Origin: an uncultured Actinomycetota bacterium
GTDB taxonomy: Bacteria; Actinomycetota; Actinomycetes; Frankiales; Frankiaceae
Length of the DNA: 24,000 nucleotides
Assembly (NCBI GenBank): GCA_963783105.1
Contig: CAWAMI010000003.1
Location: forward strand, 97,812-121,811
Reading direction: 5' to 3'
The notes beneath the pieces were generated by a model that saw only the letters and a list, made by a program, of their open reading frames with translations, made no database searches and had not been told where the DNA came from. The translations under genes were made by a program, and so were the position numbers. This document shows, piece after piece, positions 3,215 through 20,392 of this stretch (positions within the stretch are counted from its first letter, which is position 1; each line of letters starts with the position of its first letter).

Positions 3215-4018
3215 TCAGGGAGCCAGCCGCACGACGTCTCCGTGTTCCACGTAGCGCACCTCGAGATCGATCCGGCGCCGCTCGACCTCGGCCCGGAAGT
3301 CCTCCAGCGGCGAGCGGAAGACGGTGTAGTCGTCGAAGTGCACCGGGACGGTCACCGAGGGGCGGACGCGCTCCAGCAGATCCGCGCCCTGCTCGCCGTC
3401 CATCGTCACGAGGAGCAGGCCGAGGATGCGGGTGCCGCCGAGGTGCAGAACCATGGCGTCGAGCCGGGGATAGGCGTCGACGATCTGCTGCAACTCGGGC
3501 ACGTTCAGCGTGTCGCCGGTGACGTAGACCCGGAACGGCTCGCTGTCCGGCCCCTCCCGGAACTCGAGCAGACTCCCCATCACGGGCGGCAACACGCGCG
3601 CGGCCTGGCCGGGGGCGTGTCGGCCGGGCAGCGAGGTGACGGTGAGGCTCGACAGCCCGCGTCGCAGCTCGTGCGAGGACCAGGTGTCGAGGGCCACGGC
3701 GTTCTCGAATCCCTGGAGCCGCAGGCGCCGCGCCGCGTGGCGCGTGGTGATGATCGGCAGCGACTTCTCCAGCCCGCGCCTGGCTCGTCGGTCGAAGTGG
3801 TCGCCGTGCAGGTGGGACAGGACGACGGCGTCGAGCGGCGGGAGGTCGTCGATGCCGAGCGCCGGGTCGGTGAGGCGCTTCGAGAACAGCCCGCGCCCGA
3901 GGTAGGCCCGCTCGCCCTTGTGCAGGAAGTTCGGGTCGGTGAGCAGCGTGAAGCCCCCGAGCCGTAGCAGGGTCGTCGCGGTGCCGATGAACTGCAGCGA
4001 GGGCCCCGTCGACGTCAT
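3215..4018 (-). CDS. MBL-fold metallo-hydrolase (267 aa)
   Basis: ATG is at 4018. The translation carries the H-x-H-x-D-H zinc motif in VVLSHLHGDHFD, plus later His/Asp ligand candidates (LPGRHAPG, VYVTGDT, MVLHLGG). Confidence 0.85.
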   Translation of the reverse strand: MTSTGPSLQFIGTATTLLRLGGFTLLTDPNFLHKGERAYLGRGLFSKRLTDPALGIDDLPPLDAVVLSHLHGDHFDRRARRGLEKSLPIITTRHAARRLRLQGFENAVALDTWSSHELRRGLSSLTVTSLPGRHAPGQAARVLPPVMGSLLEFREGPDSEPFRVYVTGDTLNVPELQQIVDAYPRLDAMVLHLGGTRILGLLLVTMDGEQGADLLERVRPSVTVPVHFDDYTVFRSPLEDFRAEVERRRIDLEVRYVEHGDVVRLAP

Positions 4019-4066
4019 GTGTGTCTGCCTGCCCCGTGCACGCAAGACCTCACGGGCAGGCGGGGA

Positions 4067-6379
4067 TCAACGAAGGACGGTCCCAACCCCATCGACCTGC
4101 CCACTCGGGACGGATGTGCTCGCAGGCTCCGACGACTGCCCGCCCCGGGCATGGGCGGCGGAGGCGGTCGCCGCCCCTGCCTCCTGGGAGCGGGCGCGGA
4201 AGGTGCGCCCGGGCCACGCGCTCGTGCGCCCGACCAGCACGAGCAGACAGGGCACGAGAAGGCTGCGGACGATGACCGAATCCAGGATGATCCCGACGAA
4301 CATGGCGAAGCCCAACTCGCGGAACGGCGCGAGCGGAACCACGGCCAGCAGACCGAAGCTGATCGCGAGCGTGATGCCCGCCGCGGTGATCGCCCGGGTC
4401 GTGCGAGGCACCGCGTCGCGGACGGCGGCGGCCATGGGAAGCCGACGTGCCGCTTCCCAGACCTGACCCACACCCAGGATGTTGTAGTCGGCGCCGAAGG
4501 ACACCAGCATCACGGCGGCCGCGAACGGCACGTAGAAGGACAGGCCGTCGTGCCCGAGCACGACAACGAAGACCAGGGTCGTGAGCCCGAGCGAGGCGGC
4601 CACCGCCAGCACCCCCACCGCCAGCAGGTAGACCGGCGCGACCAGCGCCCGGAGGAAGATGGTCAGCAGCGCCAGCTCGACGAGTGCCGCGAACAGGAAG
4701 ATGCGCCAGAGGTCGGACTGGGTCTGACCGGCGATGCTGGCGGCGAGCGCGGTGTCGCCGGCGAAGGACGCGGACGCCCCGGACAGGCCGGCGGCAGCCA
4801 GCATCTGCGGCATCTTCGCCCGGATGTTGCGCAGCAGGTCGATGGCGGTGGCACCGAGGGGCTCCTCGTTCAGCACGATGAGGTAGCGGGCCGCTTCGCC
4901 CGTCGGGGACAGCACCGCTCCGAGTACCAGCGGGGTGAACTGGTCGGCGGGGCCGGCCACGCCCGCGATCCCCGGCATCCGTTCGATCTCGCGCTGCAGC
5001 GCGGTCAGCTGAGCCCGCTTGTCGACGATGCCCGGCTGCTCCACGAGCAGGACCGTCGGGGACAGGATGCCGGGGGCGAAGCCGACGGACGCGGCGTGGG
5101 CTGCCCTTGCCGGGCCACTGCTGCTCGGCAGCGACTTCTCGACCGACATCCCGAGATCCGCGTGACGGAGGGGCACCGCGGCGAGCAACAGCCCGCAGAA
5201 CAGGCAGAAGGCCACGATCAGCGCGACGGGCTTGCGACTGATCGCGGAGAGCAACCGACCACGCATGGCGCGGGAGGCGATGGCCGCCGGCGCCGGTCCC
5301 GGCATGTCTCCTGACGCCGGCACCCAGCGCGCCGGCCAGAAGACGGCGCGACCGACGATCGCCAGAAGAACGGGGATCAGGGTGATCGAGACGAGAACCG
5401 CGATGAGCACGGTCAGGGCCAGGGCGGGCCCGAACGCGCCGAAGAAGTCCGAGCGGGCCATGACGAGGGAGCCCACGCCCGCGCACACGGTCAACCCCGC
5501 GACCGCGATGATCGGCGTGTGCTCCGCCGCGCTGCGCTGCGCCGCCTCCCGGGGCGGGACGCCCGCGAGCAGGTGGTGCTGCGTTCCGCTGATGTAGAAG
5601 ATGCAGTAGTCCGTGATGACGCCCAACATCAGGGCCACCACGAGCGGTTCCACGTCGGAGGGGGTGGCGAACCCCATCAGCTCGCCGGCCACGCCGAGGA
5701 CCCGGACGGTCACGAGGTAGCAGACGGCCGCGACGGCCAGGGCGACCAAGGGCGCGACGACGGAGCGGAAGTTCAGCCCGACGACGAGCAGGATCGCGAC
5801 GAGTGTCGCGGTTTCCACAAAGGGGAGGCTGCGCTTCAGGACCGACGCCTGCTCGACCCGGGCCGGCACGGTGCCACCGACGCCGACGAGGGAATCCTCG
5901 GGCCGGTCGACGTACTGCCGCGCCCAGGCTCGGGCGAGTCGGTCCTGCTCGGCGAAGCTCAGCCCTGGATCGGTGAACAGGTACGTGATTGCTGTCGTGC
6001 CCGACTCCGTGGAGGCGGGGAACAGCTTCGCCGTGTTGACGACGGGGAGCGCCCCCAGCACCTGGTGGCGGCCGTACGGCCCCTTCTGGTCGTAGGCGAG
6101 GGCACGGAGCACGACACGGGCCTGGGCGTAGGGGTCGAGCCCCTCGTCGTTCCGCTGGACGACGGCGGCGCGTGCGAGCAGCGGGAAGGAGAACTGGGTG
6201 ACCGAGCGGATCTCGGCCCGGACCACGGGACTGTCCGAGGGGATGAGGCCGCCGAACTTGCCGCCACCGGTTTCACTGAAGGCCGGCAGGGTCAGGGTGC
6301 AGGCGATCGCCGCGGTGGCCCACGCCAACGCGACCAGTAGGCGGCCCTTCAGGAGCAAGCCGGCGTAGAACCGGCTCAC
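4067..6379 (-). CDS. MMPL-family (RND superfamily) membrane transporter (770 aa)
   Basis: GTG 6379 is preceded by GAGGTGA. The protein has two blocks of ~6 hydrophobic helices, each following a soluble domain. MMPL-like strings are present (VITDYCIFYISG; GADYNILGVGQVWEA). Confidence 0.85.
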   Translation of the reverse strand: MSRFYAGLLLKGRLLVALAWATAAIACTLTLPAFSETGGGKFGGLIPSDSPVVRAEIRSVTQFSFPLLARAAVVQRNDEGLDPYAQARVVLRALAYDQKGPYGRHQVLGALPVVNTAKLFPASTESGTTAITYLFTDPGLSFAEQDRLARAWARQYVDRPEDSLVGVGGTVPARVEQASVLKRSLPFVETATLVAILLVVGLNFRSVVAPLVALAVAAVCYLVTVRVLGVAGELMGFATPSDVEPLVVALMLGVITDYCIFYISGTQHHLLAGVPPREAAQRSAAEHTPIIAVAGLTVCAGVGSLVMARSDFFGAFGPALALTVLIAVLVSITLIPVLLAIVGRAVFWPARWVPASGDMPGPAPAAIASRAMRGRLLSAISRKPVALIVAFCLFCGLLLAAVPLRHADLGMSVEKSLPSSSGPARAAHAASVGFAPGILSPTVLLVEQPGIVDKRAQLTALQREIERMPGIAGVAGPADQFTPLVLGAVLSPTGEAARYLIVLNEEPLGATAIDLLRNIRAKMPQMLAAAGLSGASASFAGDTALAASIAGQTQSDLWRIFLFAALVELALLTIFLRALVAPVYLLAVGVLAVAASLGLTTLVFVVVLGHDGLSFYVPFAAAVMLVSFGADYNILGVGQVWEAARRLPMAAAVRDAVPRTTRAITAAGITLAISFGLLAVVPLAPFRELGFAMFVGIILDSVIVRSLLVPCLLVLVGRTSAWPGRTFRARSQEAGAATASAAHARGGQSSEPASTSVPSGQVDGVGTVLR

Positions 6380-8418: not shown

Positions 8419-10773
8419 TCAGTCCAGGATGAACCAGCCACGGACCTGGGCCTCGTGATCGACGTAGCGCTCGCCGGAGACGTCCACCACGACCCGATCG
8501 ATGGTCCCGCCGGTGAAGCGGAACGGCACGGGATAATCGGGCGTCACCGGCGATGCGTCGTTGCGTCCGACGCAGATGCCGTCCCCGACCAGGTTGAAGT
8601 AGCCGGGTTGGGTGACGATGTCGCCGCTGCCCACCGCCTGATCGTCCATGTAGAGGGTGAGCGTCCCGGTGGCACCGGGCATCGCGGGGTCGGCGCTGCG
8701 GCCCTTCGCGCTGAACTCGGCGGTGAAGACGTGGCTCCCGACCGGGATCTCCCGATCGCCGACCACGTTCTGGAGGAACGTCCCGACCCAGTTGAAGGCG
8801 TAGTGCAGGTGCCGGTCCTTGACGTAGAGGCTGTGCCCGCCGGCGACGCCGCCGTGGGAGTACAGGACACCCTCCGCGTCGGGTGACGTGATGTCGACGC
8901 CGGCGGCGATGGTGTAGGACCGGCCGCTGATCGTGACGCCCGCCTGCTCCGGCACGGAGGCGCAGTCCGGGTAGTAGACGTACCGGTCACGTGGCGGAGT
9001 CCCGTGCGGGCGGTCGGCGAGCGTCTGCTCCAGGGCGCTGCGGTCGTCGAGCGGCAACCCCTTGTAGATGCCGGCGTAGTAGTACCAGAGGCTCTTGAGC
9101 TTCTCGAGGCGCTCCGGCTCCTGCGCGGCCAGATCCCTGGACTGGGAACGGTCCGTCTTAAGGTCGTACAGCTCCCAGGTGTCGTGCTCGAACTTGCCCC
9201 ACCCGGACAGCGGCGGATGCAGCGTGCAGGCCAGCCACCCGTCCGAGTAGAGGGAGCGCTGGCCCAGCATCACGTAGAACTGGGTCTGTTTGCCGGCAGC
9301 CGCGGGGTCGGTCAGCGATGCCGCGAAGCTCTCGCCCTCGATCGGGCTCTGCACGTAGCCCTTCAGGATCTCGGGAGGCTCGATGTCGAGGAGCTCGTAG
9401 ATCGTGGGGACGACGTCGGACGCGTGGATGTACTGGTCCCGGACCCCGCCCTTGTCCTTGATCGTGTCTGGCCACGCCACGAGGCACATGTCCGCGATGC
9501 CTCCCTCGTACCCCGCCCAGCGCTTCCAGTACGGGAAGGGGCTGTCGAAGGCCCACGCCCACCCGGTGTTGTAGTGGTTGTAGGACGTCGGGCTCCCGAG
9601 TTCGTCGATGTGCTGCAGGGACAGCTCCGTCGGGGTGGGAGCGCCGTTGAAGAACCGCCACTCGTTGAAGGTCCCGTCCGGGCCGCCCTCGCCGCTGCTG
9701 CCGTTGTCGGAGACGGCAACGATGATCGTGTTGTCCAGCTGGCCGGAGGCCTCGAGGAAGTCGAGCACGCGACCGAGCTGGTCGTCGGTGTAGGAGACGT
9801 AGCCGGCGTAGACCTCGGCCATCCGGATGAACAGACGCTGTTCGTCGGGGGTGAGCGAATCCCACGGGCGAACGGTGTCGAGCATCGGCCAGGGCTGCCC
9901 GTCCGGGCCGGTCACCGCCGGCTCGCCGTGCGGGTTGATCGCGGAGAGCTCGGTGTCCTCGGGCAGCAGCCCGAGCTCCTTCTGGCGGCGCAGGATCTCG
10001 GGCCGGATCGCCTCGTAGCCCTGGTCGAACGTCCCCTTGTATCTGTCCGCCCACTCCTGGAAGACGTGGTGCGGGGCGTGCGCGGCGTCGAGCGACAGAT
10101 ACATGAAGAACGGCTTGTCGGGCTCGACGACCTTGGCGTCCCGGATGAACCCGATCGCCTTGTCCGACAGGTCCTTGGCGATGTGATAGCCCTCCTCGGG
10201 CGTGGCCGGGGGGTCGACCGCGTGGTTGTCCGAGATCAGGTCCGGATACCAGCAGCTCGATTCGCCGCCGAGGAAGCCGTAGAACCGCTCGAACCCACGG
10301 CCCAGCGGCCAGCGCCCCTTGTAGGCCGCCATGCTCGTCTCCTCACCTGGGGTGAGGTGCCATTTGCCGACGCAGTAGGTGTTGTAGCCGTGCTCGGTCA
10401 GCACCTCGGAGAGGAACCCGTTCTCGAACGGGATGCGCGTGGAGATGCCCGGAAAGCCGGAGTTGAGTTCGGCGATCGTCGCCATGCCGTTCGAGGTCGC
10501 GTTCCGGCCGGTCAACAGCGACGAACGGGTCGGGGAGCACAGGGCGGTGGTGTGGAAGTTCGAGTACCGCAGGCCCATGTCCGCGATGCGGCTCATGGCC
10601 GGCGTCTTCACGGGACCGCCGAAGCAATCCATCGTCCCGTAGCCGACGTCGTCCCAGACGATCATCAGGACGTTCGGTGCGCCGGGGCGGGACCTGGGAG
10701 CCAGGTAGGGGCTCCAGTCGGGCTGGGACTCGCGGATGTCGAGTCCGATCCTGCCGGAGAAGCCCTTAGGCAT
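8419..10773 (-). CDS. Arylsulfatase, Cys-type (formylglycine-dependent) sulfatase family, long AtsA-like form (784 aa)
   Basis: The N-terminus NVLMIVWDDVGYG is followed by the sulfatase signature LCSPTRSSLLTGRN (C-x-P-x-R; Cys codon at 10539-10537) and GKWHL. The ~250-aa C-terminal extension is like that of mycobacterial AtsA-type enzymes. Confidence 0.9.
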   Translation of the reverse strand: MPKGFSGRIGLDIRESQPDWSPYLAPRSRPGAPNVLMIVWDDVGYGTMDCFGGPVKTPAMSRIADMGLRYSNFHTTALCSPTRSSLLTGRNATSNGMATIAELNSGFPGISTRIPFENGFLSEVLTEHGYNTYCVGKWHLTPGEETSMAAYKGRWPLGRGFERFYGFLGGESSCWYPDLISDNHAVDPPATPEEGYHIAKDLSDKAIGFIRDAKVVEPDKPFFMYLSLDAAHAPHHVFQEWADRYKGTFDQGYEAIRPEILRRQKELGLLPEDTELSAINPHGEPAVTGPDGQPWPMLDTVRPWDSLTPDEQRLFIRMAEVYAGYVSYTDDQLGRVLDFLEASGQLDNTIIVAVSDNGSSGEGGPDGTFNEWRFFNGAPTPTELSLQHIDELGSPTSYNHYNTGWAWAFDSPFPYWKRWAGYEGGIADMCLVAWPDTIKDKGGVRDQYIHASDVVPTIYELLDIEPPEILKGYVQSPIEGESFAASLTDPAAAGKQTQFYVMLGQRSLYSDGWLACTLHPPLSGWGKFEHDTWELYDLKTDRSQSRDLAAQEPERLEKLKSLWYYYAGIYKGLPLDDRSALEQTLADRPHGTPPRDRYVYYPDCASVPEQAGVTISGRSYTIAAGVDITSPDAEGVLYSHGGVAGGHSLYVKDRHLHYAFNWVGTFLQNVVGDREIPVGSHVFTAEFSAKGRSADPAMPGATGTLTLYMDDQAVGSGDIVTQPGYFNLVGDGICVGRNDASPVTPDYPVPFRFTGGTIDRVVVDVSGERYVDHEAQVRGWFILD

Positions 10774-10839
10774 GGTTACCCCCTGGAGTGAGCGGCGTCG
10801 TTGGGAGAACCATCGGACCGCCGACGGCCGAGGCGTGCT

Positions 10840-12285
10840 TCACCCCAGGCGGGTGAACCGTTCCGCCGACGTCGCCGCGGCGTTCATGCGCTGGGCGTCC
10901 GGTGCCCCGTGGCAGCGCTTCCACTTGCGGCCGCTGCCGCAGGTGCAGGGACCGTTTCGGGGCCGGGTGGCGTCGGCGCCGGCGTAGACGGCCATCACGT
11001 CCGCCGGCGCCCGGCCCTCCCGCAGCAACCGCGTCATCGTCTCCATGGGCTCCCGCACGTGGGAGAAGAAGGCCTCGTAGCCGGCGCAGAGGTAGTGCTG
11101 CCCCGGCTCGCCGTAGGGCGAGGTGGCGAACCGGTCCTTCGGGCATCCGCCGTTGCAGGCGAAGCGGACCGGGCAGTCGAGGCAGTAACGGGTCAGGGTG
11201 TCCCGCTTCGCCTCCCCGAACGCGCGCTGCTGGGGGAGCGCGACCAGGTCCAGCAGGTGCTTGTCCGCGATGTTGCCCAGCAGGTAGTCGGGCTCCACGT
11301 AGTGGTCGCACGAGTACAGGTCGCCGTTGTGCTCGAGCGCCAGCTGCGTTCCACAGGTCTCCGCGTGGATGCACAGCGAGCCGGGTTCGCCGTACCAGCT
11401 CGCGAGCGCGTCGTCGAAGGCCTGCACGTAGACGCGGCCGACGTCGGAGCGGACCCAGTCCTCGAACACGTCGATGAGGAAGCGGCCGTACTGCTCCGGT
11501 CCCACGCTGCGCTCGGTGACCAGCGAGCCCTGTTGCGTGTAGAGCGGCCGGCCGGAGACGCCGCTGCCCCAGCCGGCGTTCGCGATGGGCAGCGTCTCCT
11601 CCGTCGCGCGCTCGACGATGGGGATGAACTGGATGAAGGTCGCGCCCAGCCCGTCGCGCAGGAAGCGGTAGACCTCGCCGCCGTGGTCACCGTTGGCGGA
11701 GTTGATCGTCGTGAGGACGTTCCACTCGACCCCGTGTCGCCGGAGCACGTCGAGCCCGCGGAGCACGCGGTCGAAGGTGGGCTTGCCGCCCTTGTCGACC
11801 CGGAACGTGTCGTGCAGCTCGCGGGGGCCGTCGATCGAGATCCCGACCAGGAAGTCGTTCTCCTTCAGGAACCGCCCCCACGCGTCATCGAGCAGGGTCC
11901 CGTTCGTCTGCAGGGTGTTCAGGATCCGCTGGCCCGGGCGGGCGTAGCGGCGCTCGAGCTCGACCGACCGCCGGAAGAAGTCGAGCCCCATCATGGTCGG
12001 CTCGCCGCCCTGCCACGCCACCACGACCTCGGGTTCGCGTGCGTGGGCCTCGAGCAGCTGCCGGAGATAGGTCTCCTGCAGTTCCTCCGCCATCCGGAAC
12101 CTGCTGCCGGGGTAGAGCATCTCCTTCGACAGGAAGAAGCAGTACTCGCAGTCCAGGTTGCACACCGCACCGGTGGGTTTCGCCATCACGTGGAAGGCGC
12201 GCGGAGCATCCCGCCCGGTTCGGGCCGGGACCGCCGGGGCAGGCGGGGCGGCCGGCGGCGGTTCGAGTCCCATGCGGCCTTCCAT
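10840..12285 (-). CDS. Anaerobic sulfatase-maturating enzyme-type radical SAM/SPASM protein with a C-terminal SEC-C-like zinc motif (481 aa)
   Basis: ATG 12285 is preceded by GGAGAAGGA. The radical-SAM motif is CNLDCEYC (12162-12139). The SPASM cluster is CLDCPVRFACNGGC. The C-terminal CTCGSGRKWKRCH (10947-10909) fits C-x-C-x8-C-H. The gene lies 66 nt upstream of the sulfatase on the same strand. Confidence 0.9.
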   Translation of the reverse strand: MEGRMGLEPPPAAPPAPAVPARTGRDAPRAFHVMAKPTGAVCNLDCEYCFFLSKEMLYPGSRFRMAEELQETYLRQLLEAHAREPEVVVAWQGGEPTMMGLDFFRRSVELERRYARPGQRILNTLQTNGTLLDDAWGRFLKENDFLVGISIDGPRELHDTFRVDKGGKPTFDRVLRGLDVLRRHGVEWNVLTTINSANGDHGGEVYRFLRDGLGATFIQFIPIVERATEETLPIANAGWGSGVSGRPLYTQQGSLVTERSVGPEQYGRFLIDVFEDWVRSDVGRVYVQAFDDALASWYGEPGSLCIHAETCGTQLALEHNGDLYSCDHYVEPDYLLGNIADKHLLDLVALPQQRAFGEAKRDTLTRYCLDCPVRFACNGGCPKDRFATSPYGEPGQHYLCAGYEAFFSHVREPMETMTRLLREGRAPADVMAVYAGADATRPRNGPCTCGSGRKWKRCHGAPDAQRMNAAATSAERFTRLG

Positions 12286-13730: not shown

Positions 13731-14768
13731 TCAGCGCAGGATCAGGGTCGCCGCCGTCTGGTCCGCCGGCCCTGCCGTCGGTCCGCCGCCGGGCAGATAC
13801 AGCCGCCCGTCGACGACGGCGGCCCCGATGCCCTGGCGGGGTTCGGGCAGCTCCCGCAGGCTCGACCAGGAGCGGGTGCGCGGGTCGTAGGCGGCCACGT
13901 TGCGGTAGGCCTGCGTCTCGGCCGCGTTCTCGCCGCCGATCACCAGGAACCGGCCGTCGAGGGACGCCCCCGCCACCGAGGAACGGCCGAGCGGCACCGG
14001 GGGCTGCGTGCTCCAGCTGTCGGTCGTCGGGTCGTAGGCCTCGTGGGCGGACGACTCGCCGGGGCGGCCGGCGGCGACGTGCAGGACCTCGTCGACCACG
14101 GCGCCGGCTGCGTGGTCCCGTGGGGTGGGCAGCGGCGCCGCGGTCGTCCACCGATTGGTCGCGGGGTCGTAGACGTCGTGCTCACCGGTGTCGACCGACG
14201 CTCCGCCGCCGGGACCGGTCGTCTTGCCGCCGACCAGATGGAACCGTCCATCGAGCACGACCGCGACGCCGGCGGCCCGCGGCGTCGGCAGCGGCGCCCG
14301 GGTGCTCCATCGGTCGGTCGCGGGGTCGTAGGCGTAGAGGGTCGCCGTGGGTCGGCCCGCGGCGCCGTAGCCGCCGGCCGCATAGATCGTCCCGTTCAGG
14401 CCCACGGCCCCGATGTGGTCCAGCGGCTCCGGCAGCGGCGCGGCGGTCCGCCAGGCCCCGGAGGTGGGGTCGAGCACCACGTGGGTGGTCGAGTGCGCCT
14501 TCCCGCCGACGTAGCCGCCGAGGACGTGGATACGCCCGCCCACCTCGGCGACCGCGACCTCGCTGACGGCGACGGGCATGTCCGGCCCGGTCCGCCAGGA
14601 CAGCAGCCGGGGATCGCTGGGACCGGCCGGTGACGCCCCGTCCTGCCGCGGGGTTCCCCCGGCCGGGAGCGACGAGCTCGACGACGAGCCTCCGGAGCAC
14701 GCGCTCATCGCCCCCGCCAGGATGAGCGCGCCGATGACGGCGACGCGAGCTCGGCGGGGCGAGGACAC
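13731..14768 (-). CDS. Kelch-repeat beta-propeller lipoprotein (345 aa)
   Basis: GTG 14768 is preceded by GGAG with 5-nt spacing. The signal peptide is SSPRRARVAVIGALILAGAMSAC (lipobox-like). The body has six repeats of the type hhhhGG...Y(D/N)Px(T/S)xxW...PLP. Only the C-terminal 345 aa of the 766-aa track ORF is real. Confidence 0.8.
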   Translation of the reverse strand: MSSPRRARVAVIGALILAGAMSACSGGSSSSSSLPAGGTPRQDGASPAGPSDPRLLSWRTGPDMPVAVSEVAVAEVGGRIHVLGGYVGGKAHSTTHVVLDPTSGAWRTAAPLPEPLDHIGAVGLNGTIYAAGGYGAAGRPTATLYAYDPATDRWSTRAPLPTPRAAGVAVVLDGRFHLVGGKTTGPGGGASVDTGEHDVYDPATNRWTTAAPLPTPRDHAAGAVVDEVLHVAAGRPGESSAHEAYDPTTDSWSTQPPVPLGRSSVAGASLDGRFLVIGGENAAETQAYRNVAAYDPRTRSWSSLRELPEPRQGIGAAVVDGRLYLPGGGPTAGPADQTAATLILR

Positions 14769-14809
14769 GCGTGCTCCGGGCCGCTCGAGGGGACGGGGCA
14801 CGGCCGCGC

Positions 14810-15985
14810 TCAGCGCAGGATGCCGGTGTGGCCCAGCGAGTACCGGCCCGGCTGGGGCCACACCGCGAGGCCGTGCGGCTCGCGGCCGACCTTGATGCGT
14901 GCGGCGAGCTGCCCGGTGGTGGTGTCGATGCCGTAGACCTCGCCGTTCCGCCGGCCCGAGAGCCACAGCGTCTTGCCGTCCGGCGAGACGCCGCCCATGT
15001 CCGGGGTGCTCGGTGGCGCGATCGGCCACGTCGCGACGATCTTGTTCGTCGCGAAGTCGAGGACGCTGACCGAACCCTTGTCGCCACCCGGGCCCATGCC
15101 GCCCCGGTTGGAGATGTAGAGCCTCGTGGCGTCCCGGCTCGGATACAGGCCGTGCGTCTCGGGCCCGGTCGGGATGAAGCCGGTGAGCTTGAAGGCGTCG
15201 CCGTCCATCGTCCACACCCCGTTGGCCATCATGTCGCTGACGTACCAGACCGTCCCGCTCGGGTTGATCTTGATGTCCTGCGGCATGCCGCCGTTCGGCA
15301 CCGGGATGTAGCCCAGCACCTTGTGCGACGCGGTGTCGACCTTCACGAGCTGGCTGGAGAACTCGCAGGTCGCGATGAAGTAGCTGCCGTCGGCGGAGAA
15401 GTCGACGTGGTTGACGCCGGCGCAGTCGACCGGAACCGAGTCCTTCACCTGGAAGGTGTGCGGGTCGGTGAAGTTCAGCCGCTTCTCCGCCTCGGCGATG
15501 ACGATGGCGAACTTGCCGTCGGGGGTGAAGTACATGTTGTACGGGTCGGTGACCGGGATGTTCGGACCTGCCCGCTTGGTGGTCCTCGGATCGATCGGCG
15601 TGAGGCTGTTGCCGTTCTCGTTGTTCGCGGCGTACAGCGTCTTCAGATCCCAGGACGGGATGACGTGCTGGGTGCCGGGGCCCGCCGGGAAGGTGTCGAG
15701 GACCTTCTTGGCCACCGGATCGATGACGCTCACGGTGCCGTCGGAGTGATTGGGCACGTACAGCCGGTAGGGCACCCCCTGGGTGGCCGGCTGGAACATC
15801 CCGACGTTGGTCGCGGCGTAGACATTGGTGCTCGACTCGGCGGGTGCCGTCGGCGGCGGGGTGGGTGCTCCGGACGACGACGTGCGCTCGCTGCCGCCGT
15901 TCGACGAGCAGGCGGCGACCGTCGCGACGAGCAGGACGGCGGCGATGCGGGCGAGGTTGCGACGGGGTCCGCGGACGCGGCTCAT
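14810..15985 (-). CDS. YncE/YVTN-type beta-propeller lipoprotein (391 aa)
   Basis: ATG is at 15985. The signal peptide MSRVRGPRRNLARIAAVLLVATVAAC has the lipobox VAAC, followed by a Ser/Pro linker. The repeated PHG/PDG/DGK...Y(V/I)xN pattern is typical of YVTN/YncE propellers. The gene is 41 nt upstream of the Kelch gene. Confidence 0.75.
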   Translation of the reverse strand: MSRVRGPRRNLARIAAVLLVATVAACSSNGGSERTSSSGAPTPPPTAPAESSTNVYAATNVGMFQPATQGVPYRLYVPNHSDGTVSVIDPVAKKVLDTFPAGPGTQHVIPSWDLKTLYAANNENGNSLTPIDPRTTKRAGPNIPVTDPYNMYFTPDGKFAIVIAEAEKRLNFTDPHTFQVKDSVPVDCAGVNHVDFSADGSYFIATCEFSSQLVKVDTASHKVLGYIPVPNGGMPQDIKINPSGTVWYVSDMMANGVWTMDGDAFKLTGFIPTGPETHGLYPSRDATRLYISNRGGMGPGGDKGSVSVLDFATNKIVATWPIAPPSTPDMGGVSPDGKTLWLSGRRNGEVYGIDTTTGQLAARIKVGREPHGLAVWPQPGRYSLGHTGILR

Positions 15986-16186
15986 ACAGCTCCGACTTCG
16001 GCTCGGGGTCACTCTGCCGTCCGCGCCGCACCGATCCCTGGCGGGTCGGAACGGGCCCGGACGTTCGCCCACGCTAGCGGGTGAGAGAGGGAAAATCGGG
16101 CCGAGCCGCCCCACCCGAGTGCAGAACCTGCCCCGGATACCCACCGTCGCGGGGACGTCGGACCCTGGACGCTCGGTCTTCCGCTC

Positions 16187-16215
16187 GGCAGTGTCGCCCC
16201 CGGCAGCGTCGCCCC
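16187..16215 (+). repeat. Tandem direct repeat GGCAGTGTCGCCCC / GGCAGCGTCGCCCC (15-bp period) upstream of the heliorhodopsin start
   Basis: The copies are at 16187-16200 and 16202-16215, with 13 of 14 positions identical. They end 26 nt before GTG 16241. Confidence 0.5.
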
Positions 16216-16240
16216 GTCGGACGTGGTCCAGGGAGGTGTC

Positions 16241-17032
16241 GTGTCCATCGCCAGCGGACCTGCGGAGCGTGTGGTCGAGCGGCCGAGGGCCGGGACCGCG
16301 CGGCGGTTGCGTGTGTTGAACATCGCCGCGTTCGTGTTCCTCGCCCTCGAGGGTGTCTACATGGTGGTGGCGAGCAACGACCTCTCGCTCCCGGTGACCG
16401 CGTCGTTCCTGCGGGACGACCCTGTCCGCGCCGCCGGTCCGACGTTGCCGGAGACGGTGTTCTCGCTGCGCATCGGCCCGGCCGTCGCCTTCTTCCTGCT
16501 GCTCGCGGCGGCCGATCACGCCCTGGTCGCTGCGCCCGGCGTGCACCGCTGGTACGAGCGGTGCCTCGACCGTGGCGTCAACTACGCCCGCTGGATCGAG
16601 TACTCGGTGAGCGCCTCGGTCATGATCGTGCTCATCGGCCTGTTCGTGGGGATCCGCGACCTCGCAGCCGTTGCGGCGGTGTTCGCGGCGAACACCGCGA
16701 TGATCCTGTTCGGGCTCCTGATGGAGCGTCAGCAGCGCCCCGGCAGCGCCGACTGGAGCGCGTTCTGGTTCGGATCGCTCGTCGGCGCGGTGCCGTGGGT
16801 GCTGATTGTGGTCTACCTGCTGCGGCCGCCGACGGTGCCGGGCTTCGTGTACGTGATCACGGCCGTGCAGTTCGTGTTGTTCTTCAGCTTCGCGGCGAAC
16901 ATGGCGCTGCAGTACGCGCGTGTCGGCCGGTGGCGGGACTACGTGCACGGCGAGGTCACCTACGTCGTGCTGAGCCTGACCGCGAAGTCGCTGCTCGCCT
17001 GGCTCATCTTCGCGAACGTGCTCCGGACGTGA
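16241..17032 (+). CDS. Heliorhodopsin (seven-TM retinal-binding protein, inverted-topology rhodopsin family), ~263 aa
   Basis: The translation aligns by hand over its full length to heliorhodopsin 48C12 as I remember it (RWIEYSVSASVMIVLIG..., FWFGSLVGAVPWVLIVVYL, VPGFVY..., YVVLSLTAKSLLAWLIF). The Schiff-base Lys codon is AAG 16985-16987 and the counterion Glu codon is GAG 16598-16600. GTG 16241 follows GGGAGG (16231-16236). GTG 16223 is an in-frame alternative start. Codon usage is native high-GC3. Confidence 0.85.
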   Translation: MSIASGPAERVVERPRAGTARRLRVLNIAAFVFLALEGVYMVVASNDLSLPVTASFLRDDPVRAAGPTLPETVFSLRIGPAVAFFLLLAAADHALVAAPGVHRWYERCLDRGVNYARWIEYSVSASVMIVLIGLFVGIRDLAAVAAVFAANTAMILFGLLMERQQRPGSADWSAFWFGSLVGAVPWVLIVVYLLRPPTVPGFVYVITAVQFVLFFSFAANMALQYARVGRWRDYVHGEVTYVVLSLTAKSLLAWLIFANVLRT

Positions 17033-17045
17033 GCGAGCCGCCCGG

Positions 17046-18014
17046 TCAGCCGAAGAGCGGGAACGCCCGGCGCCGGGCGAGTGCGTCCATGCCCTCCTGG
17101 ATGCTGTCCTGCACCTGCCGGTAGATCTGCTCGATGTACTCGTCGTCGTCCAGGCGGGCCGGGTCGGGGTCGACGTACACCGGCGGCCGCAGCAGGGTCC
17201 GGATCTTGGCGGGCAGCGGGATCTGGGGCAGCGCCGCCGGGGCGATACCCCAGGGCAACGACACCGCGATCGGGAAGACCTTGAGTCGGAGCGCGCGGTC
17301 GAGCTTCAGCATCCGGGACAACCGGTCGCCGCGGATGAGGACCGGCATCGCGTCGGCGCCGCCGACGGTGGCGATCGGCACGATCGGTACCCCGGTCTGG
17401 ATCGCGAGGCGCACGAAGCCCTTCCGCTCCGCGAGGTTCGCCTCGTCCCGCTCCTTCCAGGGCCGCAGGGAGTCGACCTCCCCACCCGGCCACAGCGCCA
17501 CGTCGCGGCCCTCCGCGAGCGCGGTGGTGATGGCGTCCGGCGCCGCGGGGAGTACCCCCATCGAGCGGAAGAAGCGGCCGATCAGCGGCATCGCCATCAG
17601 CGCGTCGTGCGCCGTGCCGTGCAGCGGGCGCTTCTCCCCGAAGTGTCGCCACCACTGCACGCCCACCGTCCAGGCGTCCCAGACGAACGGTGCTCCCGAG
17701 TGGATGCCGATCAGCAGGACGGGCGCGTCGGGGAGGTTCTCCCAGCCTTCCATCTCCATCCGGAACCAGTACTGCATCAGCGGGTTCCAGAAGAACTTCT
17801 GCCGCTGCATCGCCTGCTCGTCGGTGCCGTCCAGCGTCCACTTGCCGGCCCGTTCGGACAGCCACCCGGAGACACCGCCCTGCACCTGTTCGCGCTTGGC
17901 GCTCATGCGCTCGCGAGCGTGCTCGGCGTACTGCGCCGCCTGGCGCTGGACGTCCTCGGAGCGGGTCGGGTCGTTCGGCACGGGTTCTCCCACGGCAAGG
18001 CTGTAGCCCGGCAT
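17046..18014 (-). CDS. Lysophospholipid acyltransferase (LPLAT/PlsC-MGAT-like) superfamily protein (322 aa)
   Basis: The pattern PVLLIGIHSGAPFVWD ... ALWPGGEVDSLRP ... RKGFVRLAIQTGVPIVPIATVGG resembles LPLAT acyltransferase blocks (catalytic His block, the PGG-E block, and the [VI]P[IV]xP block). ATG 18014 has no strong RBS. The gene converges on the heliorhodopsin gene, with 13 nt between the stops. Confidence 0.6.
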   Translation of the reverse strand: MPGYSLAVGEPVPNDPTRSEDVQRQAAQYAEHARERMSAKREQVQGGVSGWLSERAGKWTLDGTDEQAMQRQKFFWNPLMQYWFRMEMEGWENLPDAPVLLIGIHSGAPFVWDAWTVGVQWWRHFGEKRPLHGTAHDALMAMPLIGRFFRSMGVLPAAPDAITTALAEGRDVALWPGGEVDSLRPWKERDEANLAERKGFVRLAIQTGVPIVPIATVGGADAMPVLIRGDRLSRMLKLDRALRLKVFPIAVSLPWGIAPAALPQIPLPAKIRTLLRPPVYVDPDPARLDDDEYIEQIYRQVQDSIQEGMDALARRRAFPLFG

Positions 18015-18129
18015 CCCGGCCGGGTCCGTTGTCTCCTGCTTTGTGCGACAGGAGCAGCGGCAGCAAACACTGCGCGGGGGAGAGGCCGAACAGGGCCTGC
18101 CGGACGTCGACGGGCGGCGACGGGTGTCG

Positions 18130-19659
18130 TCAGTGGCTGCTGAGTTGTCCCGCGAGCCGGCCGTGCATGCGGGCGGACGGGTCGTTCAGGCCGACGATCT
18201 CGACGGTCTTGCCGCGCCGCAGGTACTTGGTCGTGATCGCGTCGAGAGCTGCCACCGACGAGGCGTCCCAGACGTGTGCCTGCGACATGTCGATCAGGAC
18301 CCGGGCAGGGTCGTGGGCGTAGTCGAACTGGGTGATGAGGTCGTTGCTGGAGGCGAAGAACACCTGTCCGTGCACCGAGTAGATGACCTCGGTCCCGTCG
18401 GGGTCCGTGACGCTGGTGACCTCGACGAGGTGCGCGACGCGCCGGGCGAACAGCATCATCGCCACCAGGGTTCCGGTGACGACGCCGTAGGCGAGGTTGC
18501 CGGTGGCGACCACGACGGCGACGGTCACGACCATGACCGCCGTCTCGCTCTTCGGCATGCGCCGCAGGGTGGACGGGGAGACGCTGTGCCAGTCGAAGGT
18601 GAGGCCGGCGACGACGATCATCACCGCGACCAACGCGGCCATCGGGATGGCGCCGACCAGCGGGCCGAGTGCGACGACGAGGACGAGCAGGAACACGCCG
18701 GCGAGGAACGTCGACAACCGGGTGCGGGCACCGGACGTCCGCACGTTGATCATGGTCTGGCCGATCATCGCGCAGCCACCCATACCGCCGAAGAACCCGG
18801 TGACGATGTTGGCGACGCCCTGACCCCAGGACTCGCGGATCTTGTTCGAAGGGGTGTCGGTGATGTCGTCGACCAGTCGGGCGGTCATCAACGACTCCAT
18901 CAGGCCGACCAGCGCAAGTGCGAGCGCGTACGGGGCGAGCAGCCTCAGCGTCGCGAGATCGTAGGGCACGTCGGGCAGGCCGGGGCGGGGGAGGGAGGTC
19001 GGTAGCGCTCCCTCGTCGCCGACGGTGGGGACCGTGATCGCGGCCGCCGCCGTCAGTCCGGTCAGCACGACGATGGCGATCAGCGGTGCGGGGATCGCCG
19101 TGGTGAGGCGGGGCAGCCCGACGATGAGGACCAGGCCGAGGGCCACCAGCGGGTAGACGATCCACGGCACGGCGGTCAGGTGTGGCAACTGGGCCAGGAA
19201 GATCAGGATCGCCAGCGCGTTGACGAAGCCGACCATGACGCTCCGGGGGACGAAGCGCATGAGCTTGGGAACGCCCAGCGCACCGAGGGCCACCTGGATC
19301 AGCCCGCCGAGGATCACCGCCGCGACGAGATAGCCGAGACCGTGGTCGCGGGCGAGCGGGGCGACGACCAGCGCGACCGCGCCCGTCGCCGCGGAGATCA
19401 TCGCGGGTCGGCCGCCGGTGAAGGCGATGGTGACCGCCATCGTGAAGGAGGCGAACAGTCCGACCCGCGGGTCGACGCCGGCGAGGATCGAGAACGAGAT
19501 CGCTTCCGGGATCAATGCCAGCGCGACCACCAGCCCGGCCAGGACCTCGGTCCGGAGCACGCGCGGCGTGGCCCACGCGGGACGGGACAGCGCCGGCCGT
19601 CGAGGCGAGGCCGGGTCGGGCGAGGGCGAGTTCGGGGACAGCGGGGACAGCAGGGACAT
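18130..19659 (-). CDS. SulP-family inorganic anion (sulfate/bicarbonate-type) transporter with a C-terminal STAS domain (509 aa)
   Basis: The N-terminal core [23 protein letters not shown] and a polytopic body are followed by a STAS-like tail ([17 protein letters not shown] ... [13 protein letters not shown] ... VEIVGLN). I prefer ATG 19659. The track start at 19743 is a TTG. Confidence 0.85.
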
Positions 19660-19928
19660 GGGCCCGTTTCTCTCGTGCGCCGTTCGGGGCGCGGTGGTGT
19701 GACCGGACCCCGGCGGCGGCACGGGCGAACGTTCACGGAGCAAGGACGTTCCGGCCGCCGGACTCGTGGGCGGGGAACGACGGGGCGACGCGCTCAGGCG
19801 CGAGCGCTCGCCTCCTAGGAGCGCAAACCTATCGTCACGTCAGGGTTGGGATGAAGCCCCGGGCGGCGGAAGTGACGGCGCTCATGGTCCGCCCGGCGCG
19901 GCTGATCCGCCCGGCGCTGCCCCCGGGT

Positions 19929-20333
19929 TCATCTGCTCGCGCTCCGCGCATGGAGCTCCTCGCGCAACCGTCCCGCGAAGGACTCCGCCGTCACGAGCTG
20001 GGCGCGCAGGGCCTCGCAGCGCTGCTCCGCCGCCTCCACGTACATCTGCATCCGGTCGATGAGTCGCCGGCGCCGCTCCCCGCGTCCGGCCGCCGCCAGC
20101 TGGTCACGCAGCTTCAGCAGGTCGCGCATCTCCTCGAGGCTGAACTCGAGCGGCTTCATGTGCTTGATGAGCGCGAGGCGCTCGACGTCCGCCTGCGTGT
20201 AGAGCCGGAAGCCGCCGGCGGTCCGGGCGCTCGGTACGACGAGTTCCATCTCCTCGTAGTAGCGGATGGTGCGGATGGACAGCTGCGTTCGTTCCGCAAC
20301 CTGCCCGATCTGCAGCAGACCCTCGTCGACCAC
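19929..20333 (-). CDS. MerR-family transcriptional regulator (134 aa)
   Basis: The HTH is LLQIGQVAERTQLSIRTIRYYEEMELV, followed by GFRLY and a coiled-coil C-terminus. I prefer GTG 20333 because AAGGA lies 6 nt upstream and the HTH then starts at residue ~6. GTG 20369 is an in-frame alternative. Confidence 0.85.
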   Translation of the reverse strand: MVDEGLLQIGQVAERTQLSIRTIRYYEEMELVVPSARTAGGFRLYTQADVERLALIKHMKPLEFSLEEMRDLLKLRDQLAAAGRGERRRRLIDRMQMYVEAAEQRCEALRAQLVTAESFAGRLREELHARSASR

Positions 20334-20361
20334 GCGCTGTCCTTGTCCGTCGTGCGACTCA

Positions 20362-20392
20362 ACCCTCACGTAACGGTATCTTCAGTGAGGGT
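20362..20392. promoter_or_regulatory. Dyad ACCCTCAC-N15-GTGAGGGT in the merR/prfC divergent region, a candidate MerR operator
   Basis: Perfect 8-bp inverted arms lie at 20362-20369 and 20385-20392. A -10-like TATCTT (20377-20382) sits within the spacer. The dyad is 36 nt upstream of the prfC ATG. Confidence 0.45.

Follow-up and report, generated by a model that had tools for sequence, protein, structure and literature searches.

The founding heliorhodopsin (HeR), 48C12 from a freshwater actinobacterium (PDB 6su3, 6su4 and 6uh3), typifies subfamily 1 of Kovalev et al., in which His23, Ser76 and Gln213 were described as "almost completely conserved" and are accompanied by a Gln26/Ser242/Trp246 cluster (PMC7049168). 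A relay running His80...His23...water...Gln26...Trp246 has been proposed (PMC9726877), and a HeR with Leu for both His residues was reported to show low M accumulation (10.1101/2021.02.16.431466). For the HeRs of Geodermatophilaceae, which are soil actinomycetes of high GC content (~75%), pumping was not detected and no conserved gene vicinity was found (10.1101/2024.05.16.594530). Elsewhere, glutamine synthetase (PMC9529153), photolyase (PMC9769723) and an ABC transporter (PMC11109279) have been published as HeR partners, and HeRs regulate all three. A co-transcribed neighbour accompanies 173 of 448 helR genes (PMC11109279), so that 275 stand alone.

The gene studied here lies in a 24-kb window (the whole stretch of DNA that was analysed), where it occupies an open reading frame of 269 aa counted from the first GTG (16223..17032, + strand), as the original prediction had stated. 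The likely translation start is the GTG at 16241, which has a strong ribosome-binding site, with the Shine-Dalgarno sequence AGGGAGG (16230..16236, +) 4 nt 5´ of it; the probable coding sequence is thus 16241..17032 (+), comprising 263 aa and the stop codon. Relatives also carry G-rich runs ahead of the start codon, and an identical public protein (P0001, 263 aa) begins at the position of GTG 16241. Initiation at the first in-frame GTG would instead add an N-terminal stretch (16223..16240, +) and give the 269-aa form, but there is no ribosome-binding site 5´ of 16223, and this stretch is probably not translated, given that AGGGAGG falls inside it.

The product matched the heliorhodopsin models over their full length, with 283 bits for Pfam PF18761 (cutoff 26.7, E 2.3e-84, profile 1-242 of 242) and 266 bits for the NCBIfam equivalog NF038020 (cutoff 100, E 2.5e-79, profile 1-244 of 244). 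A database search returned 4,232 relatives, and the close HeR relatives are all from Actinomycetota. Among PDB entries, 48C12 (E 1.6e-51) and TaHeR (E 7.6e-51) were matched, and pairwise alignment to both was possible, with 101 of 248 residues (41%) identical to 48C12 (40% in the structure comparison). These results bear out the heliorhodopsin identity originally proposed from an alignment by eye to 48C12; all four blocks of that alignment occur in the translation, and the 48C12 strings used in it match the PDB entry. A HeR in a high-GC actinomycete is of a common and already known kind, for which curated models exist and which the NCBI pipeline names automatically. In addition to the identical public protein, comparable HeRs from high-GC actinomycetes have already been expressed, purified and measured.

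In the predicted structure, seven helices are joined by an A-B loop containing a beta-hairpin (strands 49-54 and 71-77, medium confidence, pLDDT 67). The model superimposed on 48C12 (6su3) with a TM-score of 0.86-0.88 and on TaHeR with 0.81-0.87. Since a seven-helix fold is common to both groups and type-1 rhodopsins were recovered as weak structural matches, we considered whether the product belongs instead to the type-1 microbial rhodopsins or to some other kind of seven-helix protein, a reading for which we found nothing further to say. The TM-scores against type-1 rhodopsins were only 0.52-0.61, at 11-15% identity, and Heliorhodopsin was the sole significant match in the Pfam search, with no other family, the bacteriorhodopsin-like one included, over threshold. 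The PF18761 and NF038020 matches together with the structural comparison refute this alternative, and its probability is negligible. A hand count along the predicted helices gave 15 Arg/Lys residues in the N-terminal tail and the B-C, D-E and F-G loops versus six on the opposite side. By the positive-inside rule, this prediction agrees with the original expectation of an N-terminus inside and is consistent with inverted topology, the N-terminus being cytoplasmic.

When aligned to 48C12, all four codons singled out in the original prediction proved to be correct. The Schiff-base Lys of the last helix is encoded by AAG at 16985..16987 (+; K255 in the 269-aa form, K249 in the 263-aa form, K241 in 48C12) and is invariant in our alignment A1. 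The counterion Glu of helix C (GAG, 16598..16600, +) corresponds to E107 and is Glu in 98 of 100 family representatives, while the Ser four residues ahead of the Lys (AGC, 16973..16975, +) corresponds to S237. The His encoded by CAC at 16517..16519 (+) corresponds to H80 and is found in all 79 related loci; it was originally placed in helix C, but it falls within the second model helix (78-97) and therefore belongs to helix B. The protein shares with 48C12 the fold, these four residues and the equivalents of Trp246 and Ser242, as well as the equivalents of H80, N16, Y92, E230, R104 and E149, so that the cytoplasmic hydrogen-bond branch is complete. It differs in that a deletion shortens the E-F loop by 5 residues and an insertion lengthens the A-B loop by 2.

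It also departs from the signature of the 48C12-type subfamily, with Leu, Glu, Ala and Met at the positions of H23, Q26, S76 and Q213, respectively. By sequence comparison, this departure leaves family membership unaffected: among 100 family representatives, position 23 is His in 69 and position 213 is Met in 46, and the S76A change is also present in Geodermatophilaceae HeRs such as BagHR (10.1101/2024.05.16.594530). The helix-A segment at 16340..16351 (+) contains the Leu (CTC, 16340-16342) and the Glu (GAG, 16349-16351). This Leu-Glu pair occurs in 47 of the 79 related loci, none of which combines His with Glu at the two positions; His-Gln predominates among the 50%-identity representatives. 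The Geodermatophilaceae HeRs have His23 where the window protein has Leu. A closer likeness at this position is to HULAa30F3 from Chloroflexi, in which the helix-A His is also Leu (10.1101/2021.02.16.431466), and P0173 and P0249, representatives of this L...L type, have Glu at position 26 as does the window protein. HULAa30F3, however, has lost the second His as well (H81L), which the window protein retains. The exchange of H23/Q26 for L/E in this clade rewires the proposed proton relay on its extracellular branch and possibly reduces accumulation of the M intermediate. The coupled H23L/Q26E change amounts to a natural experiment, one that could inform on the proposed His80-His23-water-Gln26-Trp246 relay.

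Glu at 48C12 position 26 adds a buried carboxylate in the clade, which, taken with the proton transport reported for a viral HeR (cited in PMC12873467 and PMC11109279), could be read as a sign of ion transport, say through a light-gated proton pathway of the kind found in viral V2HeR3. We think this very unlikely, as the window HeR groups with bacterial 48C12-type sequences rather than viral ones, and the bacterial HeRs tested to date, one from a high-GC actinomycete included, showed no transport. The product is an ordinary heliorhodopsin and most likely a non-pumping light sensor with a partner protein. From what is known of the family, it is expected to have a cytoplasmic N-terminus, to bind all-trans retinal, to absorb green light (near 520-560 nm) and to have a slow photocycle; going by its relatives, it would move no ions across the membrane. 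The Geodermatophilaceae HeRs were expressed and measured (559 nm).

Judged by gene orientation, the HeR gene is monocistronic. Upstream is a divergent gene for a YncE-like beta-propeller lipoprotein (14810..15985, -; PF21783), and downstream is a convergent gene for a PlsC/DAGAT-like acyltransferase (17046..18014, -; PF01553, PF03982); among 80 related loci, none has either gene beside HeR. More broadly, a tblastn search of all 18 window proteins against these 80 loci revealed no common YncE-like, Kelch, acyltransferase, RF3 or other neighbour, the sole exception being Micromonospora marina, with SulP and MerR; the window SulP is 78% identical to the M. marina protein. In an all-against-all clustering of flanking open reading frames, the top neighbour family was present in only 11 of the 80 loci. 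[quoted passage not shown] Variable neighbourhoods and HeR genes oriented against their neighbours are also features of Geodermatophilaceae (10.1101/2024.05.16.594530). AbHeR, TfHeR and OcHeR, which belong to the same protein family, have their partner genes (glutamine synthetase, photolyase and the OmrDE ABC transporter, respectively) in their own operons, whereas the window HeR has no co-directional neighbour. With no partner encoded alongside, the window gene falls into the majority, stand-alone class. The original prediction treated HeR function and partners as open, which is partly outdated with respect to partners, for which glutamine synthetase, photolyase and an ABC transporter have been published. 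It also held that every new genomic context is informative; here, with divergent and convergent flanks and neighbours common to none of the 80 related loci, the neighbourhood makes no contribution to the search for HeR partners.

The stop codons of the acyltransferase and HeR genes are 14 nt apart, and lipid remodelling was proposed by Chazan et al. from an association with DegV/DUF2177 (10.1101/2021.02.16.431466). One could therefore link HeR to membrane-lipid metabolism, in a light-dependent enzymatic or lipid-remodelling role with the adjacent enzyme. The two genes converge, however, making co-transcription impossible, and an acyltransferase homologue was near HeR in 0 of 80 related loci. 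The window also contains no DegV or DUF2177 gene, and a DegV link was likewise not found in the Geodermatophilaceae study (10.1101/2024.05.16.594530). We consider such a role quite unlikely.

The HeR gene fits its surroundings in composition, with a GC3 of 0.90 compared with 0.87-0.93 for its neighbours, in agreement with the native codon usage noted originally. On the basis of the window GC (68-76%), the HeR relatives and the SulP identity, the host is a high-GC actinomycete. The native GC3 had been taken to argue against recent transfer, an argument that is weak, since the donor could be another high-GC actinomycete and the nearest relatives span several actinomycete families with unrelated neighbourhoods. 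This scatter, together with the lack of any retinal or carotenoid biosynthesis gene in the 24-kb window, could indicate a horizontally acquired passenger gene, silent or decaying, that lacks a chromophore supply and plays no part in the host; some Geodermatophilaceae carry frameshifted HeR genes, and only half of the desert MAGs with HeR transcribed the gene. In the window, though, the frame is intact with all key residues present, dN/dS is 0.14-0.34 (versus 11 relatives), as for a gene under selection, GC3 matches that of the host, and a conserved promoter architecture is predicted to have been kept, all of which make a passenger gene improbable. We favour, with a probability of about 0.78, a functional monocistronic HeR gene at 16241-17032 that has its own predicted promoter and encodes a retinal-binding, non-transporting light sensor whose partner is not encoded alongside. 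We assume here by analogy that the regulatory-sensor mode carries over from AbHeR, TfHeR and OcHeR; like these family members, the sensor would bind and modulate another protein, in this case encoded away from HeR.

The only fresh lead at this locus comes from the region upstream of HeR, where a promoter box is conserved. The box, GGGGACGTCGGACCCT (16151..16166, +), is an imperfect inverted repeat (GGGAC-N4-GACCC) that begins 90 nt ahead of GTG 16241 and abuts a predicted -35-like hexamer, TGGACG (16166..16171, +), whose location at the 3´ edge of the box is constant. A -10-like hexamer, CAGTGT (NANNNT; 16189..16194, +), is predicted downstream. An expectation-maximization (EM) motif search detected the box at a fixed distance in ~20 of 78 HeR loci. 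In 17 of the 20 box-bearing loci, NANNNT is present at a spacer of 17 or 18, while elsewhere it occurs 0-2 times per offset, save for four at offset 57; it also follows the box in 22 of 28 unrelated, non-HeR copies. Scored with the HeR-derived matrix, the window box reached 20.0 bits and was the sole match in the window of at least 11 bits. A scan for E. coli-type consensus sequences of the window found neither promoter nor terminator. From these patterns, HeR is predicted to be transcribed from its own promoter, with 16166-16171 as the -35-like and 16189-16194 as the -10-like element. The box stays with HeR even where the flanking genes are unrelated, and it is found ahead of unrelated genes of redox type as well.

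An upstream RNA element was considered and dropped in favour of a DNA element, because there was no Rfam match at E <= 1, covariation was essentially nil with a consensus structure of -0.63 kcal/mol, and the window fold was not more stable than shuffled sequences (z = +1.31). The inverted-repeat box at 16151-16166, which abuts the -35-like element, is probably bound by a dimeric regulator. A tie to nearby MerR/B12-binding (LitR/CarH-like) regulators was rejected, as only 2 of 5 such loci have the box. The matrix matches at window position 20196 and at position 3267 of another HeR locus (L060) were false positives, lying in MerR coding sequence at or beside a GGFRLY motif. The box does not appear to fit any of the ECF-sigma (GGAAC-N16/17-GTC), GlnR, LexA or CarH operator patterns.

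The box does resemble the site of the dormancy regulator OsdR/DevR (DosR) of Streptomyces and Mycobacterium, an inverted repeat with the same GGGAC half-site (PMC5069765, PMC3177182). The listed OsdR sites CGGGACCTTCGGCCCT and AGGGACCTTCGGCCCC differ very little from the HeR-box consensus GGGGACCTTCGnCCCT, and relative to the published 16-nt palindromic consensus AGGGCCGATCGGCCCT, the window box GGGGACGTCGGACCCT has a perfect left half-site and one mismatch in the right. Its placement at -35, within ~100 nt of the start codon, is also like that of OsdR sites, the published ones being mostly at -47 to -102. Some other box-bearing genes belong to families listed for the OsdR regulon (Zn-dependent dehydrogenase, PPOX-type oxidase and flavoprotein disulfide reductase), while the genes that follow the box included none for a universal stress protein, a nitroreductase or a nitrate reductase. 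A promoter of this type would have a cognate NarL-family response regulator in the genome and be induced by hypoxia, NO or redox stress; the window contains no response-regulator gene.

With an OsdR matrix built from 25 published sites and hence independent of the HeR loci, the window box scored 8.8 bits, below all of the published sites (11.2-18.0 bits); it was not the top match in the window, and the chance maximum in simulated windows was 11.5 +/- 1.7 bits. The commonest HeR-linked box variant scored 4.7-6.0 bits, and 6 of 77 related HeR upstream regions exceeded the 99th percentile of controls. A strict OsdR identity of the window box is unsupported at 8.8 bits, and the regulatory link is unproven because this copy scores under every published site. 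It is tentatively conceivable, though on balance doubtful, that a large soil-actinomycete HeR clade with the His23/Gln26 to Leu/Glu exchange, the window gene among its members, has its own promoter with an OsdR/DevR(DosR)-like repeat at -35, shares this box with redox-type genes and so places HeR in a hypoxia/redox-stress ("dormancy") type regulon. We found no joint mention of heliorhodopsin and DosR in the literature searched. If correct, such a regulon would for the first time give access to the physiology of stand-alone heliorhodopsins, and the box is a possible route to the timing of their expression, perhaps under an OsdR/DevR-like regulator. Two or more boxes in tandem are a hallmark in M. 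tuberculosis (PMC3177182); the window has a single clear box, with a weak second match, AGGGAAAATCGGGCCG (16088-16103, 7.5 bits), 63 nt upstream. Besides the window copy, a variant of the upstream box has the sequence GGGACCTTTGCCCCT.

The plus-strand ORF at 16223-17032, originally predicted to encode a heliorhodopsin (HeR), is present exactly there and gives a 269 aa product from the first GTG. In a profile-HMM search, the translation matched Pfam Heliorhodopsin (PF18761) with 283 bits (E 2.3e-84) across profile positions 1-242 of 242, with no other significant Pfam match, and scored 266 bits against the NCBIfam equivalog 'heliorhodopsin HeR' (cutoff 100). The protein is 41% identical (101/248) to the founding HeR, 48C12, whose sequence blocks, as given in the original prediction, match the PDB sequence. 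The four plus-strand codons singled out there were all correct: AAG 16985-16987 (Schiff-base Lys), GAG 16598-16600 (Glu), AGC 16973-16975 (Ser) and CAC 16517-16519 (His) align to 48C12 K241, E107, S237 and H80, respectively. Among solved structures, the best match was 48C12 (E 1.6e-51), followed by the Thermoplasmatales HeR (7.6e-51). An AlphaFold model, built on a shallow alignment and hence of only medium confidence (pLDDT 67), has seven helices and a beta-hairpin in the A-B loop, and superposes with a TM-score of 0.86-0.88 on 48C12 versus 0.52-0.61 on type-1 rhodopsins. Counted by hand from the sequence and model helices, 15 Arg/Lys lie on the membrane face that holds the N-terminus with the B-C, D-E and F-G loops, versus 6 on the opposite face, consistent with the predicted cytoplasmic N-terminus. 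The dN/dS was 0.14-0.34 against 11 relatives, and GC3 was 0.90, similar to the neighboring genes and in line with the native codon usage proposed. Judged from its sequence, the heliorhodopsin gene is intact and evolves under purifying selection.

The start codon is likely GTG 16241, giving 263 aa: the sequence AGGGAGG (16230-16236) is found 4 nt before it, and the public sequence identical to this product (P0001) has the same length. The conserved His, which had been assigned to helix C, falls in the second helix of the model. The protein also carries Leu in place of 48C12 H23, Glu for Q26, Ala for S76 and Met for Q213. H23, S76 and Q213 are almost completely conserved within the 48C12 subfamily, and the Q26/S242/W246 cluster of 48C12 holds water beside H23 (PMC7049168). 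QM/MM work proposed an extracellular-side relay, His80...His23...water...Gln26...Trp246, and a cytoplasmic branch, His80...Asn16...Tyr92...Glu230...Arg104...Glu149 (PMC9726877). The residues of the cytoplasmic branch are all kept here. The extracellular branch is altered at both of its middle links, the helix-A segment at 16340-16351 (plus strand) encoding Leu-Glu at positions 23 and 26. Across 79 related loci, in raw counts that ignore kinship, Leu-Glu was found in 47 and Leu-Gln in 5; His23 was always paired with Gln26, and His-Glu never occurred. The loci with His-Gln are the more distant relatives of this Leu-Glu protein. Among representatives at 50% identity, His-Gln was the commonest pair (50 of ~84, again irrespective of kinship), and Leu-Glu recurs in a second lineage, also without His80, that is similar to HULAa30F3, a characterised HeR with low M accumulation (10.1101/2021.02.16.431466). 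In these counts, the substitutions at positions 23 and 26 are coupled among the related loci. Speculatively, the Leu/Glu swap might alter the photocycle.

At E <= 1e-10, 4,232 proteins were retrieved in a family search; the best 120 of these were 73-100% identical to the window HeR. Several relatives carry the NCBI name 'heliorhodopsin HeR' (Micromonosporaceae, Motilibacteraceae, Streptosporangiaceae, Mycobacteriales and Marmoricola MAGs), and cultured Micromonospora species have relatives at 69-74% identity. [quoted passage not shown] The heliorhodopsin finding is thus correct yet ordinary. The original view of HeR partners as unresolved no longer fully holds: other HeRs were shown to bind and modulate proteins encoded in the same operon, namely glutamine synthetase, a photolyase and an ABC transporter (PMC9529153, PMC9769723, PMC11109279). 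By analogy with the family, the window HeR would bind retinal, absorb green light and have a slow photocycle without transport, and may modulate, in a light-dependent manner, a protein partner encoded elsewhere. The remaining interest lies in the coupled helix-A substitution and a promoter box, both of which are clade-level features not special to the window.

Gene calls and Pfam searches place the HeR between a divergent YncE-like beta-propeller lipoprotein gene (14810-15985, minus strand) and a convergent acyltransferase gene (17046-18014, minus strand; stop codons 14 nt apart), and the gene is therefore monocistronic. The YncE-like gene and a Kelch lipoprotein gene (13731-14768, minus strand) form a tandem pair of predicted beta-propeller lipoproteins (13731-15985), each with a signal peptide and a lipobox-like Cys. 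Beyond the acyltransferase lie, in order, SulP/STAS, MerR, RF3 and flavoprotein disulfide reductase genes; MerR, SulP/STAS and the acyltransferase make up a co-directional string converging on the HeR (17046-20363, minus strand). When the window neighbors were sought beside the HeR in 80 related loci, none was found except SulP (78% identical) and MerR (57%) in Micromonospora marina (L030 7115-8979), just downstream of the HeR, in the opposite order and with the acyltransferase missing. A functional tie to the acyltransferase, tempting given the published lipid hypothesis, was not supported by adjacency, the enzyme being absent near the HeR in the 80 loci. The commonest neighbor family of the related loci was NmrA/SDR-DUF2867 (9-11/80), followed by DUF6512 (7/80) and MerR with a B12-binding domain (5-7/80); none of these occurs within the window. 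The last group, found <5 kb from the HeR (L003 4557-5459, L009, L015, L019, L060), has the LitR/CarH-type light-responsive architecture, matches the published 'MerR' neighbor group, and showed no association with the promoter box. Gene context thus points to no partner for the window HeR. Its chromophore site and its cytoplasmic network are both intact, and the gene is under selection and lies outside any operon.

Upstream regions of the HeR loci share sequence without synteny. An EM search of 78 such regions yielded the motif GGGGACCTTCGnCCCT(A/G)(C/G)AGG in ~20 loci at a near-fixed position, with scores of 9.2-19.7 versus at most 6.4 in downstream-region controls and 9.2 in reverse-complement controls. 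The box, GGGACCTTnGnCCCT, precedes the HeR in L001-L017, L024, L061 and L066. The window copy, GGGGACGTCGGACCCTGGACG at 16151-16171, is the sole match of at least 11 bits to the HeR-derived matrix in 24 kb. Its 3´ end forms a -35-like hexamer (TGGACG, 16166-16171, plus strand), followed by a -10-like hexamer (CAGTGT, 16189-16194, plus strand) with the A2 and T6 pattern at 17-18 nt. A hexamer keeping only A2 and T6 was found at this distance in 17/20 loci and at other offsets in 0-2 loci, except for 4 at offset 57. An RNA element upstream of the HeR was also tested and was not supported. We strongly predict that the HeR would be transcribed from its own promoter with this conserved box. The octamer GTCGCCCC is tandemly repeated (16193-16200 and 16208-16215) in the predicted 5´ leader (16193-16217), in the stretch that separates the -10-like hexamer from the ribosome-binding site; in L002, L009-L011 and L066 it also follows the box, at a distance of ~20 nt.

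Further copies of the box were found elsewhere in the loci, with 6 non-training matches of at least 17 bits versus 0.8 expected from Markov simulation, and 3 of at least 20 bits versus 0 expected; these lie 43-101 nt upstream of NmrA/SDR-DUF2867, cupin, patatin-like lipase and YgaP-like genes, among others. Scanning metagenome contigs for exact matches to GGGACCTTNGNCCCTACAGG gave 45 sites, 17 of them directly upstream of a HeR, with 69-76 nt between box and start codon at 16 and 48 nt at the remaining one. Of the other sites, four precede a gene for a flavoprotein oxidoreductase (Pyr_redox_2) and two a gene for a STAS protein; behind others lie genes for a PPOX-type oxidase, Zn-alcohol and aldehyde dehydrogenases, an amidohydrolase and ABC ATPases. 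NANNNT was found at a spacer of 17 or 18 in 22/28 otherwise unrelated non-HeR box sequences. The box is thus not HeR-specific, and we conclude that it probably defines a class of promoters in which the -35 is abutted by a regulator-type inverted repeat, GGGAC-N4-GnCCC. Four of the metagenome copies (L083, L092, L097, L122) share a conserved downstream stretch, …cgatCAGTGTcgcggcagg…, that is not followed by any convincing ORF; a small RNA or a short peptide gene under the same promoter class may explain it. Actinomycete-type HeRs, up to 74% identical, were also found on contigs binned as Gemmatimonadota (L008, with the same promoter box), Steroidobacteraceae (L071) and Chloroflexota (L077) MAGs. 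Mis-binning likely accounts for these copies on diderm or non-actinomycete bins, with horizontal transfer as the alternative; they bear on the claim that HeR is missing from diderms.

The box resembles the DosR/DevR site. The DevR half-site is GGGACT (PMC3177182), and OsdR, the Streptomyces orthologue, has the consensus AGGGCCGATCGGCCCT and listed sites that include CGGGACCTTCGGCCCT and AGGGACCTTCGGCCCC (PMC5069765). Both sites nearly equal the HeR-box consensus, and another box copy (L054 4693-4738) has exactly the sequence of the first. With a matrix built solely from 25 published OsdR sites, 6/77 HeR upstream regions scored above the 99th percentile of controls (L006, 14.7 bits), while the window box, third-ranked in the window, scored 8.8 bits, lower than every published site (11.2-18.0) and not above the chance maximum (11.5 +/- 1.7); the commonest HeR-linked variant scored 4.7-6.0 bits. 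Genes behind the box shared with the OsdR list encode a Zn-dependent dehydrogenase, a PPOX-type oxidase and a flavoprotein disulfide reductase; universal-stress-protein, nitroreductase and nitrate-reductase genes were not seen behind box copies. The resemblance is real, but membership is not established because the matrix result is mixed and the gene overlap partial. The box may be bound by OsdR/DevR itself, by a paralogue or by another protein, and control of the HeR by an OsdR/DevR-like regulator would be speculative; we found no paper treating heliorhodopsin and DosR together in the literature searched.

Elsewhere in the window, a 785-aa sulfatase is encoded with a radical-SAM/SPASM enzyme directly upstream (8419-12270, minus strand). 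The latter is probably an anaerobic sulfatase-maturating enzyme and, unusually, ends with a SEC-C zinc-binding motif. An MMPL-family transporter gene (770 aa) is followed by an MBL-fold hydrolase gene without an intergenic gap (3215-6379, minus strand), which suggests an operon.
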